Notes under the pieces: model-generated | What the model saw: only the letters and a program-made list of their open reading frames with translations | Told to the model about the DNA's origin: nothing | Database searches by the model: none | Position numbers and translations under genes: made by a program | Assembly (NCBI GenBank): GCA_010093605.1 | Contig: MU004181.1 | Location: forward strand, 3,100,001-3,164,000 | From: Lophium mytilinum | Lineage: Eukaryota | Direction: 5' to 3' | DNA length: 64,000 nucleotides | Shown: piece by piece, positions 9,981 through 44,700 of the stretch | Position numbering within the stretch: position 1 is the stretch's first letter | Layout: each line of letters starts with the position of its first letter

Positions 9981-11721
9981 TCAGGTAGGCAGCGGTGCAC
10001 ACGATCCATTAGCACAACAGCTCGGATCCCCAGCCGCACACCCACTCTCTCCACAATGACACGTGCAACTCCCATCCGCACAGCACGGCATGCTATCCGC
10101 CGAGCACCCACTCTCGCCACAGTTGCAATTGAAATCGGTAGGAACCGGCGTGCTGGTAGGCACAGACGCAGACGGCGTGCTCGTAGGAATAGCGACGAGT
10201 TCCGGAGACAGGGCTGCAGCCGCATTCTCAACATTATCATTGCAATCGGGGGTGGTCACGTTGAGGGGCCCGTCACTACCTGCGTCACTGCAGCTGAAGG
10301 CGTCATTGAGGTACACGTTGTAGGCGTCCGAGGGGGCAACGCCGAGGGCTTCGCCCAGCTTGACGGGGTCGTCGGTCTGACTGATGATGCCGGCGTTGTC
10401 GAGGGTTCCAAAGGGCTCTTCCGTGGGTTGCTCGCTGACGATAGGGTACCGTGGGTATTCTCCGATCTGGCCAGTAACCCACATGGCGAGTGCGTACTGC
10501 GCGAGATTATCGGCTGTTGTGATGTTGTTAGAACAACTCAAGAAGAAGGGTTCTGTGCTGGAGAGTTGCTTACCATTGGTGGCAACCCACCATCCCGTGT
10601 TTTTCGACCATCGGGCTATGGTTTTGGTGTATTCACCTCCGTATGCCTGTACCGTGACCACCCTATTGAAAGCGGGAGACCAGATCTGGATTTTACGATC
10701 ATAGACGTGTTTGATGCGGTATGCAACATTATTCACCATTCTATTGATGTGAAAGAGCTCGTGTAGTGCTACATACCCTATAGACAGCGTTAGTATTACT
10801 CAGAATTCCAAGGGCCATCTAGATAACTAACCACGGCATTCATAGTTGCGCAGAAGAAGTCTATCCCTCTCGCCAGTAATCGGTTTCATACTTGCGATCC
10901 TATCCGGGCAAGAGCCCAAAGCAAAGAAGCTCGGACAGAAATTTATTGTAGCTACAGCAGTACCGTCATGGTTACTGGTATAAGCTGCCGCACGAGGGAC
11001 CCATGAAGAAACAACGTCGTTCCCACTTGAGTCCTTCTGGGTTATCGCTCTCCAGCATCTGCTGTTGCCTGCTCATATGTCAGTCTTCCCTGTGCTTACA
11101 TGGACACAAATAGGCGTCAAGTACTAACATTTGTCCACGTCCCCGGGTTGTGTGCCTAGGGGACATGCTAGGTCTTTCCGCTGTAGGTAGTCGTCACAGC
11201 GAGCTTCGAGTTGCCATGCTAGTATTGTTCCATCGTTGTGCCAGGTTTGAATGTTCTTCATTATAGCTACATTAATGGTCAGTTAGCGCAGTCAACTATT
11301 TCCTTAAAAGGTCTTTTTACGTACCATTAATCTCAGCTTGATAGTCTTGGTTGTTATCCGGAGAGCCCAGAAAGTCACCGGCTTGCTGATCTTTGTTAGA
11401 TTCTGGTCAGAGAAGGAAATTCTGAGTGACACTATTCTTACGTCGCTAGTGAAGTCTATGTCACTCGAGACCGACTGGCCAATCTCTAGAAGCTCACCCC
11501 ACGCACTCTCAATGACCGAGGACCAGTCTGGATGATCATCCGTGTTGCAGCCGTCCCATCCCCAGAAATAAAAGGCGCTAGCACTGACGTCCTGTCTTGA
11601 CGTGAGGTTTACTGGCGAATCGTCCAGAACAGTTGCATCGTGGGCAGCTGGAAAAGCGCAAGTGTGCAACCAAGAGAACAATTGTCACAGTAGCTGCCAG
11701 GGAGCAATATTTTGCTGCCAT
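9981..11721 (-). pseudogene. Secreted HEXXH zinc metalloprotease-like (M35/aspzincin-like) gene with Cys-rich C-terminal repeats; one frameshift near the signal-peptide end
   Basis: The spliced product has AAYT, INFCPSFF, HELFH, AYG and NADN motifs, with five in-phase GT-AG introns. ATG 11721 encodes a signal peptide that is out of frame with the mature region. Either a pseudogene or an assembly indel. Confidence 0.7.
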
Positions 11722-13518
11722 TGTTCGACTTGGTCTGAGCTGATAGAACCGAAGGCGATGAATGGTTTGGTTCTTAGTTGATGGAAGTTATGAGAGTCTT
11801 ATAGTGGTTGTATCTCGGTTCTGATCACGCTTCTAGCAGCCCCCAAGATAGAGAGATTTCAGTGTCGTACCAAGCACCGCCCGTGGAGAGTTGCACAGTG
11901 GGAGCTTGATCCATGATTCTCGGAACTAAAGCTACTGGACATGATGATCTCTGCCGACCGCAGCGTAGTTGGCAGCTGAGTCGCATTCTGCCGTTGATTT
12001 GAGATCACATTTGGGCTATATTTGTGAGATCGGATCTTAGGAATGCCTTCTTGGTAGCCCAGGGCAAGCAATGAGCTCGAATGCGGAGAATAGGCGAGAA
12101 GCGAGAATCCGAAAGGGGCATCGAGTACGATCACAAGGCGTATACAGGTGTTGGTGGCGGCGAATCGACTGGCACCTATTGCTTCGTCCTATTAGACCTC
12201 TGCAGCCTCCTCGTTAAGCCCTCCAACATGGTTAGCTCAACGTATTCCTGATTGGCCTGGTCGTTCAATCTTGGGAAAACCCCACCACTCTATTTAGGGG
12301 TAATTAAAACACCTCGTGTCATCTCTGGTGGATCATGCGGTGTTCTTCATTAAGTTGAAACGCACTCTAAAATTCAGAAGAGGTAATATCGCAAGGCTGC
12401 CGATCTGCAGGGGCAAATATGGTATTTCGAGTGAGACTGAGAGTTCTAACACGCGAGGCGACAAAGCATCCCCAATCTACTTAGTTTGGTGAAGAGATGA
12501 GTGAACTCAAGAACTTACCGAAGTCAAGAATTTACCGTGAGTAAGAGTCCGTCTTGACCTCTTTTAATCGCGTTGAAATTACGCGGGATTTCTATTTTGT
12601 AGTCCAGTGACCACCAGATGTAAAGGAAGACGGCCGTGGCAGGCAGAGCTGTTACAGGTCATACGTTCGAGGTGACAAAACGGCAACGGCTTGAAATCTG
12701 AGAGGAAATGATAGATATCTCGAGCTATACGTTTTTTGAGCTAAGAAAGACTAGATGAATGCGATCTACATTAATATGCTTATAGAAAAGGCGTGAAGTA
12801 GTAGGCGCTCCGTAGAACTACGGCTGCTATATGCAATATGATGACACTGGAGAAATAACTTGATAGTAAGAAAACCAAGTTATCCAACACCTATTGGCGG
12901 TTCAATGACGGGACGCAGTTTCGCGGTTACTCAATCGTAAGCCCTTACTCCAACGACATAGGAAAATTCGGACCCAGTGATGCGCGTCGAAGAGTGGCCG
13001 TTTCACACGGGTGGACGGAGCTCCTTTGTCCACGAGGGATGTCTCCTAGAATCCTGAGGTCCCCGCAGCTGGAATCTATCGGGCACCTAGGAGGTAGGAC
13101 CAAGGGCGAAGATGCAAGTCGGGAGCGTCACAATGTCGGATGAGAGTTGAGGCTCAAGGGATCGTCAGGGTCTAAGGTGCAGCAGAAGAGGCAGAGATAT
13201 GTATCTCGGTTCTCCCTATCACGGAGAGCCAGAAGCGGTAGCACTGCCGAGCTGCGAGGGTTGATGAACCGGGGCGTTGCAGATCTGGTGCGTCATGCAT
13301 CGCCAAATTTTCCAAGCTTTGGAGCAGTTCCCCGCCGGCGGTCCAAGCTTCCAAGCCAACTTTCGCTGTGTGCCAACCTCCACACCAACCTCTCCTCTTC
13401 ATTTCTTACTCTATCCCTATCGTATTCACTCAATCAATTGCCTCATACTTCTGTCCTAGATTGTCTCAGTCATTGTAAATCACTGCAGTTGCAGCTTGCG
13501 TGCAGCTCCGCCGTCAAG

Positions 13519-15560
13519 ATGGTTCAATGGGGAAAGCTCTTCAACATGGACCACGATACGCGTGTTGGCTTTCATGATGAGATACGCGCACGTCCGTGGC
13601 ACCTTTTCGATTATTGTCATTGTTTGCTTCTTCCATTTGAAGAACGCTCGCTCACGATTCCTCGTAGTACTCCCAACCCGCCGCGACGAAATACCTCCTT
13701 CTCCCATACCTTCTAAAGAAGTCACAAAGGTCGCGTTGCGTCTAAAATACCAAATAGAACAAGTCATACCCTGTGAGCTGGAGGAATGGAAGATCACCAA
13801 GGCCCACAGTTCTGTCATAACGCCCGCCGTGATCAAGGCCGCCAAGGACGCAGGAGGAGACGAATACAAAGGCTGTGTCGTCTACTGTCTGCTCGTGGTC
13901 AAGAAATGGTTCAGACGTCAGGCCATCCTAGAGCTCTGGGACTCAGACTTGCACGATGTCCGCGCTGTTGCCTGCGAGGTCATGGCGAAGGCCATCATAG
14001 AGGAAGAAGAGGACATGACCTATCTACTTGAGGAGGTCCTACTCAAGCGGTATTCTATCATGATCAACGGCAAGGACTCGCTACCTGCGAATGCCATTGA
14101 ACGAGCTGTCGATCTCCACGCCCTTCGGGTAATTGGATCTTCGGGCTATCAAAAGTGTATATCCTTCCTCTGGCGCGGTTGGCTAGTTCAAGACGACGAA
14201 GACCCTTCACGATTTGTCGACTATAAGGAGAAGACAAACACCAGCTACTGGGTACATTTTGATCCTGACAGGATGCGCGTTCCTGTGTATCAGAACACTG
14301 TTCAGATCGCTATGTCCCTCATCTTCCTGGGACTGTACACAGGAGCAGTCAACACGATAAACCCTACCGGTGACCTGGACGTCGTTGAAGGATTGCTCTA
14401 CCTCTTCACCCTGGGCTTCATGTGCGACGAGTTCGCGAAATTCTGGAAAATTGGTCGTTACTACATTGGATTCTGGAACATATTTAACAGCACGCTGTAC
14501 GGCTTGTTGACAGTATCTTTCGTCACGCGCATGATTGCCCTCTCGCATCCTACACACCACGAAAAGCGCAGGGAATTCAACGAACTATCGTACAACTTCT
14601 TAGCATTCTCTGCTCCTATGTTCTGGATGCGACTGTTACTCTACCTCGATACCTACCGCTTCTTTGGTGCCATGTTAGTCGTCTTGAAGGTAATGATGAA
14701 GGAGTCCCTGATCTTCTTCGCCCTTCTCCTCGTGGTCTTAATCGGATTCCTCCAAGCGTTCCTGGGGCTAGATCAGGTTGACCACGAGTTGGATGATACC
14801 GGCTTCATTGTCGAGGCTATGCTCAAAGCTATCATGCAGAGCCCGGAATTTGAGGGATTCGACAATTTCGCAGTACGTACATCCCAGCTCCTTGGACAAA
14901 TAATCAGCTGCTAACCATTGGTATTATTCAGCCACCTTTCGGTCTTATTCTTTACTACATCTTTACTTTCGTAGTCATGGTTGTTCTCCTGAACATCTTG
15001 ATTGCTCTGTACAACTCTGCATATGAGGACATTACGGAGAATGCCGTTGATGAGTACATGGCTCTAGTAAGTTTGCTCTGTGTTCGACGCTGTGCACACC
15101 CCTGACATACAATTAGTTCGCGCAAAAGACCATGCAATTCGTTCGTGCTCCCGACGAGAACGTATTCATCGCTCCCTTCAACCTCATCGAGATTTTCTTG
15201 CTCGTCATTCCCTTCGAATGGTGGATGCCCTACGAAACGTATCAAAGACTGAACAACTACGTCATGGGGTTCATCTACTCGCCCCTCTTACTTATCACCT
15301 CATTCCTTGAAACGAAGCAGGCACACGTTGTTAAGTACAACCGGAGGAGAGGGGAGGAGGACGATGACACCGTTGAAGAGTGGGAGCAGCTGAATGACGA
15401 GTGCGATTTCGAGGCCGATGGGTGGACTAAGAAAGTGGAAGACTCGAAGCCAAACGTGGAGACCGATGCTGCGATTTTGGAGCTGAGGAAATTGAGGAAG
15501 GATGTAGGCGAGCTGAAGGAGTTGATCGAGGGCCTCAAGGGATCAGTGAATGGATCGTAG
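13519..15560 (+). CDS. YVC1: Vacuolar TRP-family cation/calcium channel Yvc1
   Basis: ATG in CCGTCAAG context. Motifs KVALRLKYQIEQVIPCE, RMRVPVYQN, FGAMLVVLKVMMKES, RAPDENVFIAPFNL. Three introns (first donor GTCCGT). Confidence 0.95.
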
Positions 15561-39561: not shown

Positions 39562-41788
39562 TCATGCGTGTGAAGTCCGCTGACCATATCGCTGATAGGC
39601 CTCGCTGCCCGGTGCATGGCCCGCGTCGGATGCAGAGCCTGGACGTTGCAGTGATTGTGTCGTCGGCAGCGGCGCCGAAGCAGGGCTGTCCAGATACCCG
39701 CCGTACTCCCATGCGCTGCGGCCCGTCGAGTATGGGAAATTGGGTGCTGCATGCGCTACCGGTAGATGCGCGCTTGCCGGCCATGGGCTCAGGCCTTGGA
39801 GGCTCGGCGCCAGCTGGGGAACCGATACTGGCAGCTCCGTCGGCAGGCCACCTGACACGCCCAGGCCTGCTGATGCTTTGCTCTTGGGAGAGTGCAGCTT
39901 TGCCAGCGGCAGGCCCGTCGCGTACGCCAGGGGCCCCGAGGAGCTGGCGACTGAGCGTGGAGACGTGTTGCGATGGAGGTCGTTGGACTCGAGCGCCCCC
40001 GCCGTCGACGAGTAGCTGGCAGACTGTGACGTGTTAGCTGCATGCAGCCCATGAGTCTATTGCACATACATATTTACTGATAATCTTCTTGAGCGCATGC
40101 GCGAGGATCTTCCACGGGAAAACCTTGACGTCCTTCTCAATGTTGCGCGGCTTAGGGTTAGGGAAGCCCATGATGACTTTGAAGAACTCCTCACTGTCCA
40201 CCTTGGTTTTGGACACTGTCGCTGGCCGGAACCCTTCCAAGTTGCGTCGGATGCGATTCTTCTCCTCCACCGTAAACCTCACGCCCACCAGCGATTCGAG
40301 AAGGAAGATGGTGTCCACGCTGGTGATGTAGCACTCATTCTTCTCCTCCCACCAGATGCAGCTGACACAGATGCTGTTGGGCGAGCGTTGTTCTGGTGAT
40401 ACTGGCTCGAACGTTGTCGTTATCGTGCTCCCTGACTGGCTTCTTCGGAACTGAACCAGGCGTCGTTTGGTGTCTCGTTCGTCTAGGCTCCATTTGTCAA
40501 GGTCGCCCATCTTCTCCAAGTCCCCATCGATCTTCAGTATCGCCTTTGAGTTCGGGTACATTAAGTAAGGATTGAAGGCCTGAGGATGCGAAGGCCCCGG
40601 CGTGCCTCTGTTGCTGGGAACCTGGATAGTAGACGTCCGAATCAGTTGCGGGTTCGCGAGGCTAGCAGGAGATGGCATGGCTGGCGTTCTGGCTGGAGTT
40701 GCTGCAAGAGATGCCGGACTACGACGCGGCTGAGTAACGGTAGAGTAGGGACTGTACGAGGGCATGTTCGGCGACTGTGCCTTGATATTCTGCGAGTAGT
40801 TCATTCCTCCTGGATGGATATAAGATTGAGTCTGCTGCGGTTGCACTCTCTCGTAGCCAGTTGAATATAGCCCACTCGGGAGCGAAGGCTGGAGATACGG
40901 CGTGACTGGCGACGGCGAGCCATGTCCAGTAGCGTAGCCTCCGGCGGTCTCCCTAGGTTTCGAATAGAGGCGCTGTGACGAGATGCGCTTCGGCTCTGGT
41001 CTGATGTAGTCTTCCGATTCGCCTGAGTACTTGCGCTTTCGCGGAACGTCTTGCACGGGATTGTACGAGTTGTACGAGGCAGCAAGGTCCGAGTAAGTGA
41101 AATCACCGACTTCAACGACGTCGTACTCGCGGCCATAGGCATCTTCGATCTTCATTTGCAGTCGGACCTGGTTATCGAGAAGGGAATTCGTCGACAACGG
41201 AGGCGATGGAATTTCTGTGGTCGTCGAGTAGAAGTAGTAGTTATCCGATTGCGTAACTTTCATCTGGCTCGTCTCGCACCGCTTGGTGCCAAACATGATG
41301 GTGTAGAAGTAGATGTTGGTCTGGCTGGTGAGTTCCCATCTGCTTCTCAGATTAATGGTGAACTTTTCTCCTGCAACACCTTTAGTAGGATGATACGACG
41401 TAATTTCCGGCGGAGGTCCAGGGAGTTGCAGTGAACGAGATGACGCATCAATAAATGGAAAGGCAGCTGGATAGCTGCTTGAGCCGCGTGACTCGTAGCC
41501 CGAAATGGGAATGTAGGGCATCTCTACGCTCGAGGGCTCATGGGATGCCCTCGCCTGCGCGTCGGTGTATTGCGAGGCGAAAGGCTGTGTAAAGCTAGCA
41601 TAGCTTGGGTCTTGGTTTGGTCGTGTGGCTGCGGCGTCTAAAAGAGGGTGTCAGTCAAACCTAGTCTCACGTGTGCCTGACCCGGGGCCATCCGACCGAA
41701 CGGGGTCTTCTGCCTCGCACACTCGTCATCTGCACCATACATACGTACCGTAGAGATAGGGTTCCTGCGACTTTTCGTAACTAGACAT
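39562..41788 (-). CDS. medA: Medusa/MedA (Ren1/Acr1/ACON-3 family) developmental regulator
   Basis: Conserved core RRLVQFRRSQSGS, ICVSCIWW, TSVDTIFLLE, EEKNRIRRNLEGF, PKPRNIEKDVKVFPW. Introns 41748-41638 and about 40069-40025. AUG form starts at 41788; a probable upstream extension to CTG 42069 is described in findings. Confidence 0.93.
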
Positions 41789-44700
41789 GGACAGTGTGGC
41801 AGACAGCCCGGATAAAGTCAGAGGACCACTTTCGTAGTCTTGACCACACTGCAACAACAACGACTCGGTAGAGTCACAGTCTTCGCCTACAATGAAGGGC
41901 GCTTTCACACTCCTTTCAGGCTGCGGTCCCGACACGAGGTTAGCAGGCAACTTAGTGGTGGCGGCGGCAACGCAGGCAGCAGCATGGTGTATGGGGCGGA
42001 GTGCGGCATTGCCTCTGGTAGGATGGGAACAGCACGTACCTGAAAGCGAGCACTGGCGATGCAGGCCAGCTTGACGGTATTTCGAAGGTTTGAGGTTGTC
42101 GTGAGGCAGTGATGCTCGGACTGCACCGCCTGGACGAAACGTCTCGCGGAGCGCAGTGAACTTGAGAAGGATCCACAAATGTGGGAAACTGTCTCTCGGA
42201 GTAGGAGCAAAGACACACGGCCGGGCAAACTCGACTGCTCCAAGCATACGATGACAGTCTGACTTCAAGATGGTGGGAGAGCACAGTGGGACTCGTGACA
42301 CTTGTAGGTGACGATGAGACCCCGTCGACAGACAGACGAGAGCAGTTCTCACAGTAAAGAATCATTCGGGAGAGATTGCAGGGGCCTTTGAGAGCTCAGG
42401 TTCCTTTGAGGTGAGTCGGCTGTCTCGCGCACAGGATGCTTCCGTCGCGTAGAAATGCGCGGTTTCGGGAAGGCGAGGGACTTCGCCAGTAGAACAAGAT
42501 TGATTCAGCGCAGCAACCTGTCTGGAATGAGAATGATAGATGCAAAGCGGTCTACCGCGCATGGCTGCAGACGCGCCTGGACGTGCTCACCTGGGAAACA
42601 AAGAGTTCAGAAACATTCGCGCTGGGGGCGGGCCGTGGTGGTGAGGCTGGGCGGCAATCTTGCGGGACGGTGGAGCACTAGACCGGTGCGGAGAGAAGTG
42701 TTATTACAGCGGTAGCGTTCCCGGAACTATGGCAGCGCGTGAGATTGGCGGAACCGGATGACGACGATCGGCAGACATGCAAGGAAGTGCAGGCCGACTC
42801 ACCTTTGAGGACCTTCAGACGTCTGGGAGCAGCTCGAACCGTCGGCCTGGTATTCTGGTATTCTGGGGCAGCGGGCAGTGGCAGACGGAGGCCTGAAACT
42901 AAGGACCTGCAGTGTGCAGAGGCTGTGGTGGAGGTGAGGGTTGAGCTCGACCCGGGTCACCGTAAGGCGCAGCGTCAGCGCTCACGGGCCGCAAAGGTCC
43001 CCAGTGGACGCGACCGGGGAAGCGGACAGCTCGCTCTGCCAGTTTGGTTTGGGGGAGAGGCGTCTGCTGGAGAGCGGTGCCTGGCAGGCTGAGGGCTCCC
43101 AGACAGCAACAGAGCGCTGGAACACTAGGCTGGCTCGCGGGCGGTCGAGCAGCAGGCTTCAGCAAGAATGCACACAGAGGCCGGCCACAGCGCTGAGTCA
43201 CAATCCAAGGGCGGCGAGGAGGGCGAGGGCGAGGTTGCAAACGAAGGACGCAGCGGATAGCGAGAGCTACGGCGAAAGCGAGAGTTGGAGGGCCGGCAAG
43301 ACAGCGTGGGAGCAGAAAGGGCAGCCAAACTGGGGCGACGGCGGGGACGAGATATAGAGCCGCAGCGGAAACATCAGCGAGCACTGCTTGCATGGCGGGT
43401 GTGCTTCGCGGCCGTGCAAGACGGTGACGCTGCGCCATTCAGCAGCTGGAGAGGGCGTCTCCGGCGCTGACTGGCCAGGGCCGGAGCCAGTGCACGTCTG
43501 CTAAGCATCTTGGTGCGGTCTGGGGCTTGGGGAGCCTTCGCTGCTTCGGGCAGCATGGCACTGACAGAAAGGGAGAGGCTGCTGAGGTTGCGAGTGCGGC
43601 TGCGAGTGGCAGCCCAGGTGGGCCGAAGCGAATGTGGTGAGCGACGGCCGCGCGGGCCCTAGCGTTGATGGCTGCTATTCTGGGCGTGGCTTGCATGCAA
43701 CCTTAATTCGAGTCCTGGACCCGGGACTACACCACTGCGAATGACGACGCCAGACGACAGCAGCGCAGGCCCAGTATCACCGTGGCCTCACGACTAGCCT
43801 TACGGGGTGGTATAGCGCTCACTTCGACCGCTTTCTCACCACGCCCACACGCTCACGGCATCACGAGTCGCCGCCGTGGCCACGCTGAGCACGCTGCGGC
43901 GGCAAACCAACCACGGCGCGGGCTCCAGCACGCTGGGGCGGGCCGAGAATTAGTTCTGTACGAAGGTACGAGCGCCCCGCTGTGTTTGCTGGCTCCGCTC
44001 TGCCTTCCGCCGGCTTCCTCTCCTCCCGCCGCCTCCCGCCTCCTATCGCAGCCGGGCTGGAGGGCTTCCAAGCTTCCTCTCCACGGCATCCCGGGTGCGC
44101 GTCTCGGGCTGGCCTTGCAGAGGGAGGGGCTGCCGGTCATCGACGCCTGCATGCTGCGACAGCGACGTCGGAAATCCGCCGCCGCTCCACCTACGTCCCT
44201 TGCGCATCAGCACGCACTGTAATGGCCGTCGTTATTCTTAGCAGCTGATGCCGCCGTAGCACGCCGGGTCCCTCCGTGTTGAGGGCGGGCTACGAGGCCG
44301 GTGCGGCTGTGTCGATCGCCCGCCGGGGACGAGGCCTACCTTATGCGCTGGGCGTTTGGCTTGCAGCATCGCCACGCTACCATCTCAGGCCAGGGACATT
44401 TATGCAGCCAGGGCCGCTAATCGGGCAGCGAGATGCATGTCCCTGGGAATCGCGGCTCCGGCCCAGCTTTGGCTTCTTCTACGACTGCTTCTTCGGACGA
44501 GCCTCCTCTGTCTACCCTGGATACATCAGTCTAGAGATGGCTTCCTGGCCCGGACCGTCCTCCTTTCCAATGTCCATGTGTCAACGAAATGTTCGAAACG
44601 CTCCCCTTCCGCCCGTAGCGCCCGCCCTCCAATACCGACCCGATCAGACTGCCCTTATGCAGGCACATCCGCCTCACGCCTCACTCGCCTGATGCCACCC

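Follow-up and report, generated by a model that had tools for sequence, protein, structure and literature searches.

A conserved CUG codon as the probable start of an extended MedA protein in Dothideomycetes

MedA times the expression of brlA and abaA in Aspergillus nidulans, and its molecular action is described as unclear in the available text of one study (PMC3563288). The medA gene of Lophium mytilinum raises the question of where the protein begins. We addressed this question in a window of 64,000 nucleotides (contig MU004181.1, positions 3,100,001 to 3,164,000), in which medA lies on the minus strand; coordinates are those of the window. The original prediction placed a second, non-AUG start at a CTG upstream of the annotated AUG, joined to it through an intron. 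Comparison of sequences indicates that CUG initiation of medA in Dothideomycetes is probably real, with a rough probability of 0.85.

The protein carries a DUF7082/PF23305 domain in its C-terminus (E 6e-72), its homologue matches are named medusa or medA, and the gene is single copy (one match in its own genome), all of which it shares with the MedA/ACON-3/Ren1/ACR1 family. Sequence and spliced contigs together give a leader that is about 1.5 kb long and interrupted by three introns. The first leader exon (42803..43594) is delimited by spliced contig coverage, its 5' edge being a contig end and not a mapped transcription start, and contains five upstream AUGs. It is followed by a 76-nt GT..AG intron (42727..42802) placed by contig joints, and a 73-nt intron (42518..42590) is placed by sequence and contigs at its canonical cut, the joint being ambiguous by a few bases. 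The next leader exon (42040..42517) is represented by pieces 42040-42515 in contig X1 and 42040-42495 in contig X3. The CUG occupies 42067..42069, and extension codons 1-10 run from it to the end of this exon (42040..42069). A 119-nt phase-0 intron (41921..42039) comes next, with a GTACGT donor at 42039, a CTAAC branch motif and a CAG acceptor at 41921, and the remaining 44 codons (41789..41920) are open down to the AUG at 41788. The positions from the CUG to the AUG hold as originally predicted. The exon of the annotated AUG ends at 41749 (41749..41788) and is followed by a 111-nt intron with conserved internal blocks (41638..41748; contigs and alignment), the main exon (40070..41637) with an Ig-like beta domain, modelled on the orthologue L014, and DUF7082/PF23305 (about 40546-40079), a 46-nt intron (40024..40069; contigs) and the last coding exon (39562..40023; contigs and sequence) with the stop codon at 39564.

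The transcript evidence consists of assembled contigs, from three runs presumed to be RNA. In an RNA-type contig whose best match is Lophium mytilinum, the 119-nt intron is removed, which places the CUG at 42069 in frame with the AUG at 41788 over 54 codons. The joint 42040/41920 is present in contigs from two of the three runs: X1, which has no mismatch across 43594-39300, and X3, which has a few mismatches and comes from a relative. Contig X2 extends from the CUG exon into the intron, to 41991. The spliced orthologous contigs L014 and L017 confirm removal of the homologous intron. NCBI model P0001 starts instead at an upstream AUG (42245..42247) and reads through the 119-nt intron.

On the window alone the extension could be fortuitous. 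Fifty-four open codons have a chance of about 0.11 at the local GC content, and ten further near-cognates stand in frame ahead of the CTG in the leader exon, so that the single-genome observation is not beyond chance; it is the comparative data that make it real. The CTG has the context CCGTCAAG-CTG-G, and CCGTCAAG also stands directly before the ATG at +13519 in the window, the start of a gene which we take to be YVC1.

Among 13 distinct Dothideomycete orthologues, the CTG was found exactly 30 nt ahead of the homologous junction in every one, and in each of the 11 distinct sequences that are unspliced, codons 1-10 span 30 nt. The surrounding columns are nearly fixed (-4C 13/13, -3A 12/13 with G in one, +4G 13/13, +5C 12/13). 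This conserved context (42061..42081) starts near -12, upstream of which columns are mostly shared by 4-8 of 13. Codon controls, run on 12 sequences with L018 dropped, showed that none of 12 invariant Leu columns and none of 63 invariant columns of fourfold or higher degeneracy in the main exon keep a single codon. The predicted conservation of the CUG and its strong context holds. The annotated AUG has U at -3 and U at +4 in the window and a pyrimidine at -3 in 13/13, a conserved poor context.

Could the extension be translated from another start, either a different upstream near-cognate or an AUG-bearing exon spliced upstream of the CTG? The ten near-cognates in the window would allow it, Eurotiales models keep C-N-T-[FVI]-K before the matching Leu, two Logan models begin 11 residues earlier, and Sordariomycetes do begin five codons upstream. 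Two transcription starts are also reported for A. nidulans medA in the available text of PMC3563288. However, in-frame stops lie 5-10 codons upstream of the CTG in 7 of the 13 distinct sequences (8 codons in L001, L005, L007 and L009). L017 and L018 have the stop five codons upstream with no near-cognate between, leaving the CUG as the sole near-cognate start, and L009 likewise has none in the interval. No in-frame ATG was found between the upstream stop and the CTG in any of 20 sequences. Furthermore, the -1 codon varies (AAG, AAA, ACG, GAG), as does the -5 codon (CGA, GGA, TAG and others), and the spliced contigs X1, X3, L014 and L017 show a continuous exon upstream of the CTG. Another start is thus very unlikely.

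Initiation at the CUG also implies that the frame behind it is kept. The extension is open in 12 of the 13 distinct sequences when the homologous acceptor is used; its length is 51-56 codons, its internal indels are multiples of three, and frame 0 is stop-free, in contrast to frame 1, which is interrupted by stops in all 13. With a naive first-YAG acceptor rule, no more than 13 of the 18 genomic loci come out in frame. Four L001-type loci are in frame with the CAG homologous to the contig-proven junction, and not with the TAG right after the branch motif. The exception is L012 (98% to Alternaria conjuncta MedA), which keeps the CTG in a weaker context, out of frame with the homologous acceptor. 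The check for stops and frameshifts in orthologues, by which the prediction could have failed, thus turned up this one case. The check for coding-type substitution gave pN below pS in 75 of 78 pairs with a median pN/pS of 0.70, uncorrected and with pairs that are not independent. Three close pairs gave 0.28-0.30, and the outliers were the window against L012 (1.11) and against L013 (0.97). These values point to modest amino-acid constraint on the extension in Pleosporales; with the near-invariant Eurotiales sequence described below, they support purifying selection on the peptide at moderate strength.

The same data bear on a second alternative, in which the conserved block of 21 nt acts in DNA or RNA, for instance by binding a factor or enhancing splicing, and the open frame is a relic, no longer translated, of an exon that once began with AUG. 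The block adjoins a 5' splice site, medA has other conserved non-coding blocks, the Sordariomycete V-K residues could be the origin of GTCAAG, and the frame is lost in L012. A relic, however, would not keep its frame stop-free and its indels in multiples of three in 12 of 13 lineages, in which identity to the main exon of the window is 51-69%, nor would it remain a near-invariant peptide of 52 residues across Aspergillus and Penicillium. The invariant -4, -3 and +4 are among the positions that define a good initiation context in filamentous fungi, according to the available text of PMC5487733, and the motif occurs at only three places in the 43-Mb genome. We regard an element with an untranslated relic as very improbable. 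Counting against CUG initiation, analysis downstream of the codon gave no support for a conserved hairpin (z below -2 in 2 of 12). A putative stem in the 111-nt intron showed compensatory change in 0 of 13 pairs. Coding read-through of that intron was rejected because stops or a change of frame occur in all 11 sequences.

Beyond the Dothideomycetes the comparison was made at the protein level, and codons there are inferred. The class-wide sample came from an extension-centred profile that grew to full length (737 positions), and so is not a search with the extension. A search for homologues with just the 57-aa exon of the extension returned, among 10 candidates, only the organism's own protein, and was uninformative. 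Of 13 Eurotiales models that include the first exon, 12 have a stretch of 52 residues without Met, running from the Leu (or Val) to the Met; the thirteenth continues into the intron directly after codon 10. Across Aspergillus and Penicillium protein models this segment is near-invariant and in the same register as in Dothideomycetes; two Paecilomyces models have Val at the CUG position. All 56 proteins that carry the FDP motif lack Met within the extension, and the starts annotated for them are heterogeneous or partial. In three Sordariomycete proteins the same segment begins with Met five codons earlier and has Phe at the CUG position. The classes share a motif, P-[FLI]-I-[VL], with Pro at position 18, and models from Xylona, Acarospora, Piccolia, Chaenotheca and Amylocarpus have it too. 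Three classes align here without a gap, with a Fusarium duplospermum orthologue as the Ren1-side comparison, which bears out the suggested resemblance to N-termini of MedA orthologues. By such alignment the extension is old in Pezizomycotina, a CUG at the matching Leu in Aspergillus and Penicillium is probable, and Sordariomycetes appear to start the extension with AUG five codons upstream. Judging from their place beside the acceptor, the annotated Met starts of orthologue models (M-Q-P, M-A-Q-P, M-[IV]-H-T) are likely intronic. Many of the gene annotations seen here overlook or garble this apparent start.

A further alternative accepts the CUG as a start but places its effect in initiating or elongating as such, through total MedA dose or shielding of the weak AUG, the peptide being neutral. 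Divergence of the extension is rapid in Pleosporales, it has no Pfam match, and a structure model predicts it to be disordered (pLDDT 37-44). That model and a fold search suggested no function for the extension, the top matches being generic Ig folds. In A. fumigatus, the C-terminal domain alone (residues 346-557) complements the phenotypes tested, as given in the available text of PMC3503810. Against neutrality stand the near-invariant sequence in Eurotiales, the Pro-18 motif, which aligns without gaps in three classes, and a length that stays within 51-56 codons. We consider a neutral peptide somewhat doubtful; it would be compatible with the CUG as a start site.

How might the CUG be reached? 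Some 300 nt ahead of the CUG stands an upstream AUG in poor context (42363..42365, -3 pyrimidine). In the window its uORF is out of frame, has 113 codons and extends over the CUG. This AUG is present in 12 of 13 distinct sequences, always with a -3 pyrimidine and upstream of the CUG, in variable frame and with uORFs of 45-148 codons; a conserved uORF peptide was rejected because frames and lengths differ between species. The AUG at 42245..42247 is also out of frame and in poor context. The leader thus presents in order a weak conserved upstream AUG, the CUG in near-optimal context, 54 codons with an intron, and an AUG in poor context. By leaky scanning past the weak upstream AUG, part of the ribosomes would initiate at the CUG and part at the AUG, giving a 743-aa MedA, whose N-terminal tail is acidic and probably disordered, and a 689-aa MedA. 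Since every start in the leader is suboptimal, MedA output and the ratio of long to short forms should follow start-codon stringency, as set by the eIF1/eIF5 balance, stress or development. Regulated switching between the isoforms would fit the conserved poor AUG context, and we rate it a little below an even prospect.

The medA CUG would be an addition to the fungal non-AUG starts described for cpc-1 and idi-4, and starts of similar conservation depth are few in the fungal literature covered (these same two). Like medA, cpc-1 of Neurospora crassa and Pezizomycotina (Ivanov et al. 2017, PMC5487733, available text) encodes a fungal regulator behind a long leader with upstream AUGs, and has a conserved near-cognate with -3A/+4G in frame with a main AUG of weaker context. 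Unlike medA, it has two conserved upstream AUGs in optimal context, and several near-cognates precede its inhibitory uORF2. In medA there is a single CUG, which follows a poor-context upstream AUG of variable frame, and an intron splits the short extension of about 54 aa. The cpc-1/GCN4-type reinitiation layout (a conserved short uORF1 and an inhibitory uORF2 in optimal context, with near-cognates upstream of uORF2) is absent from medA. IDI-4 of Podospora anserina (Dementhon et al. 2004, as cited in the available text of PMC5487733) is likewise a fungal regulator with a proposed conserved CUG start, but this bZIP protein is proposed to use CUG in place of AUG; in medA a conserved AUG remains in frame downstream, so that two isoforms are expected. 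Human non-AUG N-terminal extensions (Ivanov et al. 2011, PMC3105428, available text) show the diagnostic pattern found for medA: the frame is open, some species have stops upstream, codon and context are conserved, the median length is 51 codons, and in some clades the extension begins with AUG at or near the same place. They belong to another kingdom and other genes, with no medA relative among them.

The available texts of PMC3503810 and PMC3563288 treat A. fumigatus MedA as a single 683-aa protein and make no mention of isoforms or non-AUG starts. We found no report of non-AUG initiation at medA in the literature covered, to which the first descriptions of medA, acon-3 and REN1, and supplements, did not belong; these could bear on novelty. 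If the N-terminus of MedA starts at the conserved CUG, many database models, with their heterogeneous starts, are truncated or invented, and constructs built from the annotated AUG would be without the long form. Tentatively, and with less confidence than for switching itself, medA in much of Pezizomycotina including the Aspergillus models may be a three-step stringency sensor (weak upstream AUG, strong-context CUG, weak-context AUG) that sets the dose and N-terminus of a regulator of conidiation timing. The long acidic-tailed MedA would then be functionally distinct, a form not addressed in published Aspergillus MedA work, and Sordariomycetes would have fixed it with an AUG. With the CUG as the start, a developmental switch would be open to study as translation-level control, and the apparent exchange of AUG and CUG between fungal classes is a natural experiment on start-codon evolution.

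The minus-strand gene is medA: its product carries DUF7082 (Pfam, E 6e-72), its best protein match is from Lophium mytilinum (99%), further matches bear the name medusa, and the 43-Mb genome holds a single medA match. Re-examination of the window returned the medA AUG (41788), the 119-nt intron (42039-41921) and the upstream CTG (42069) of the original prediction, all correctly placed. An open extension in a single genome is a weak observation; 54 consecutive open codons are expected by chance with p ~0.11 at this locus. Transcript evidence came from contigs of three sequencing runs (X1, X2 and X3), whose RNA nature is the tool's guess. One X1 contig spans 43594 to 39300 with 0 mismatches and skips five introns, including 42039-41921, and X3, from a close relative, has the same joint, which bears out the proposed splicing in two of the three runs. 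A low-depth X2 contig passes from exon into this intron, which indicates intron retention or DNA in that run. The spliced leader up to the AUG is 1538 nt long; none of its 8 upstream AUGs feeds the medA main frame, and the nearest in-frame stop upstream lies at 42267. The NCBI model P0001 (842 aa, 39564-42247, minus strand) takes an out-of-frame upstream AUG, 42247, as its start and translates the 119-nt intron as coding sequence, in conflict with the spliced contig. The product would be 689 aa long if started at the AUG and 743 aa if started at the CUG.

A metagenome scan reduced 173 candidate stretches to 19 medA loci, which together with the window, minus seven near-duplicates (L002, L006, L008, L010, L011, L016 and L019), gave 13 distinct sequences. 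The nearest named proteins are from Cenococcum, Lentithecium, Kalmusia, Plenodomus, Paraphoma, Alternaria, Pyrenophora and Didymellaceae, plus one distant form, and the main exons are 51-69% identical to that of the window. Because the CTG was first found by a context pattern, a gap-free alignment on the exon junction was added, and the CTG position was identical in 13/13. Conservation of the CUG, which had been sought across Pezizomycotina, thus holds in every Dothideomycete sequence, mostly in strong context (-4C and +4G in 13/13, -3A and +5C in 12/13); upstream of -12, most columns are conserved in just 4-8 of the 13. In filamentous fungi, start context depends chiefly on A at -3 and G at +4 (PMC5487733). 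In the main exon of 12 sequences (L018, whose frame ended at 308 aa, was left out), a single codon was kept at 0/12 invariant Leu columns and at 0/63 invariant columns of fourfold or higher degeneracy. Since no invariant Leu column keeps one codon, the codon CUG itself is conserved, beyond leucine alone.

The context was also said to match that of another gene in the window, and it does: CCGTCAAG-ATG-G lies at 13511-13521 (+) before a spliced membrane-protein gene at 13519, presumably YVC1. A further CCGTCAAG-CTG occurs at 10356-10366 (-), with its CTG at 10366.

The extension carries a coding signal. When the acceptor is chosen by homology to the contig-proven junction, it is in frame, stop-free and 51-56 codons long in 12/13, so that the expected lack of stops and frameshifts stood except in L012, which is out of frame; frame 1 has stops in 13/13. 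Internal gaps in a frame-blind DNA alignment are 3, 6 and 12 nt. pN was below pS in 75/78 pairs (median ratio 0.70; uncorrected, pairs non-independent, L012 forced into frame), and pN/pS was 0.28-0.30 in three close pairs. A naive first-YAG rule put 13/18 loci in frame; four L001-type loci fail because TAG directly follows their branch motif. The Alternaria-like L012 (417-701) combines its frame break with a decayed, weaker CUG context; a lineage loss of the extension is possible, and the frame break may also be a sequencing error.

Within Dothideomycetes, no start other than the CUG fits the extension on the aligned sequences. An in-frame TAG lies 5 codons upstream of the CTG in L018 and the spliced contig L017, and an in-frame stop 8 codons upstream in L009; none of the three has a near-cognate codon in between, and the codon directly preceding the CTG varies (AAG, AAA, ACG, GAG).

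The likeness to orthologue N-termini, part of the original prediction, was found in protein sequences of Eurotiomycetes and Sordariomycetes. M-S-A-[VA]-K-F opens three Sordariomycete proteins (Colletotrichum, Xylaria and Fusarium clusters), its F opposite the CUG-Leu in an ungapped alignment, and Pro-18 is in register in all three classes. Among the matches listed, 30 of 120 Eurotiales proteins begin at the second Met, 42 have upstream residues and 48 were without the anchor pattern used. Their upstream part is near-invariant, but starts are annotated at very different places, and three of the NCBI models are incomplete. The 13 Eurotiales models with the first exon have K-L in 11 and V at the position in two Paecilomyces; in 12/13 the second Met is preceded by exactly 52 Met-free residues, and in the other, which is unspliced, codon 10 is followed directly by V (GT donor). 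The extension there probably starts at CUG as well, or may start a few codons further upstream. Its exon-2 part also occurs in Xylona, Acarospora, Piccolia, Chaenotheca, Amylocarpus, Dothistroma and Botryosphaeriales models. We infer an old extension that Sordariomycetes start with AUG and Dothideomycetes with CUG.

Other conserved blocks were observed around medA. The intron after the AUG exon, 41638-41748 (-), keeps TCA-NN-TGAC, CGG(A/C)TG and CCACGTGAG across 11 Dothideomycetes from the window and L001-L018. These blocks may serve as factor sites or as an internal 5' splice site, or may form a stem; the consensus fold of the intron had compensatory change in 0/13 pairs. A GCTGCCT-type motif (41960-41985, minus strand) lies in the extension intron, ~30-40 nt upstream of the branch point, in most of 11 unspliced sequences. 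A ~33-nt block at 43675-43710 (-), kept in L001, L003, L005, L007 and L018, lies 80-115 nt further upstream than the spliced contig reaches and is likely a promoter element. Inside leader exon 1, L001 and the distant L014 share a TGACTCA-containing block (43183-43206, minus strand), which we take to be an AP-1/Gcn4-like site; a shorter transcript could arise from it, or it could tie medA to a bZIP regulator. In a model of the spliced contig L014 (1100-3322), an Ig-like beta domain besides DUF7082 is confidently modelled at residues 142-251 (Foldseek returned Ig folds, with the NFAT TIG domain at rank 46), and the extension is predicted to be disordered (pLDDT 37-44).

The conserved extension is a real feature, and we put the predicted CUG initiation in Dothideomycetes at roughly 85%. 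Judged by the comparative criteria of PMC3105428, it belongs with conserved non-AUG extensions. It resembles cpc-1 and idi-4 (PMC5487733), although medA is without the uORF1/uORF2 layout of cpc-1. No report of a non-AUG start in medA was found in the part of the literature searched. The annotated AUG has U at -3 in 12 sequences and C in 1, with U at +4 in 13/13; the Ser codon before it may partly explain this poor context. An upstream AUG ~300 nt before the CUG, with a pyrimidine at -3, is kept in 12/13, its frame and length not. These three successive suboptimal starts would form a substrate for leaky scanning and stringency control, which may act on medA. An essential role of the extension is not indicated. 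In A. fumigatus, PMC3503810 describes faster MedA-GFP accumulation after N-terminal deletions and complementation of the tested phenotypes by the C-terminal domain alone, results that make a role in stability or activation plausible.
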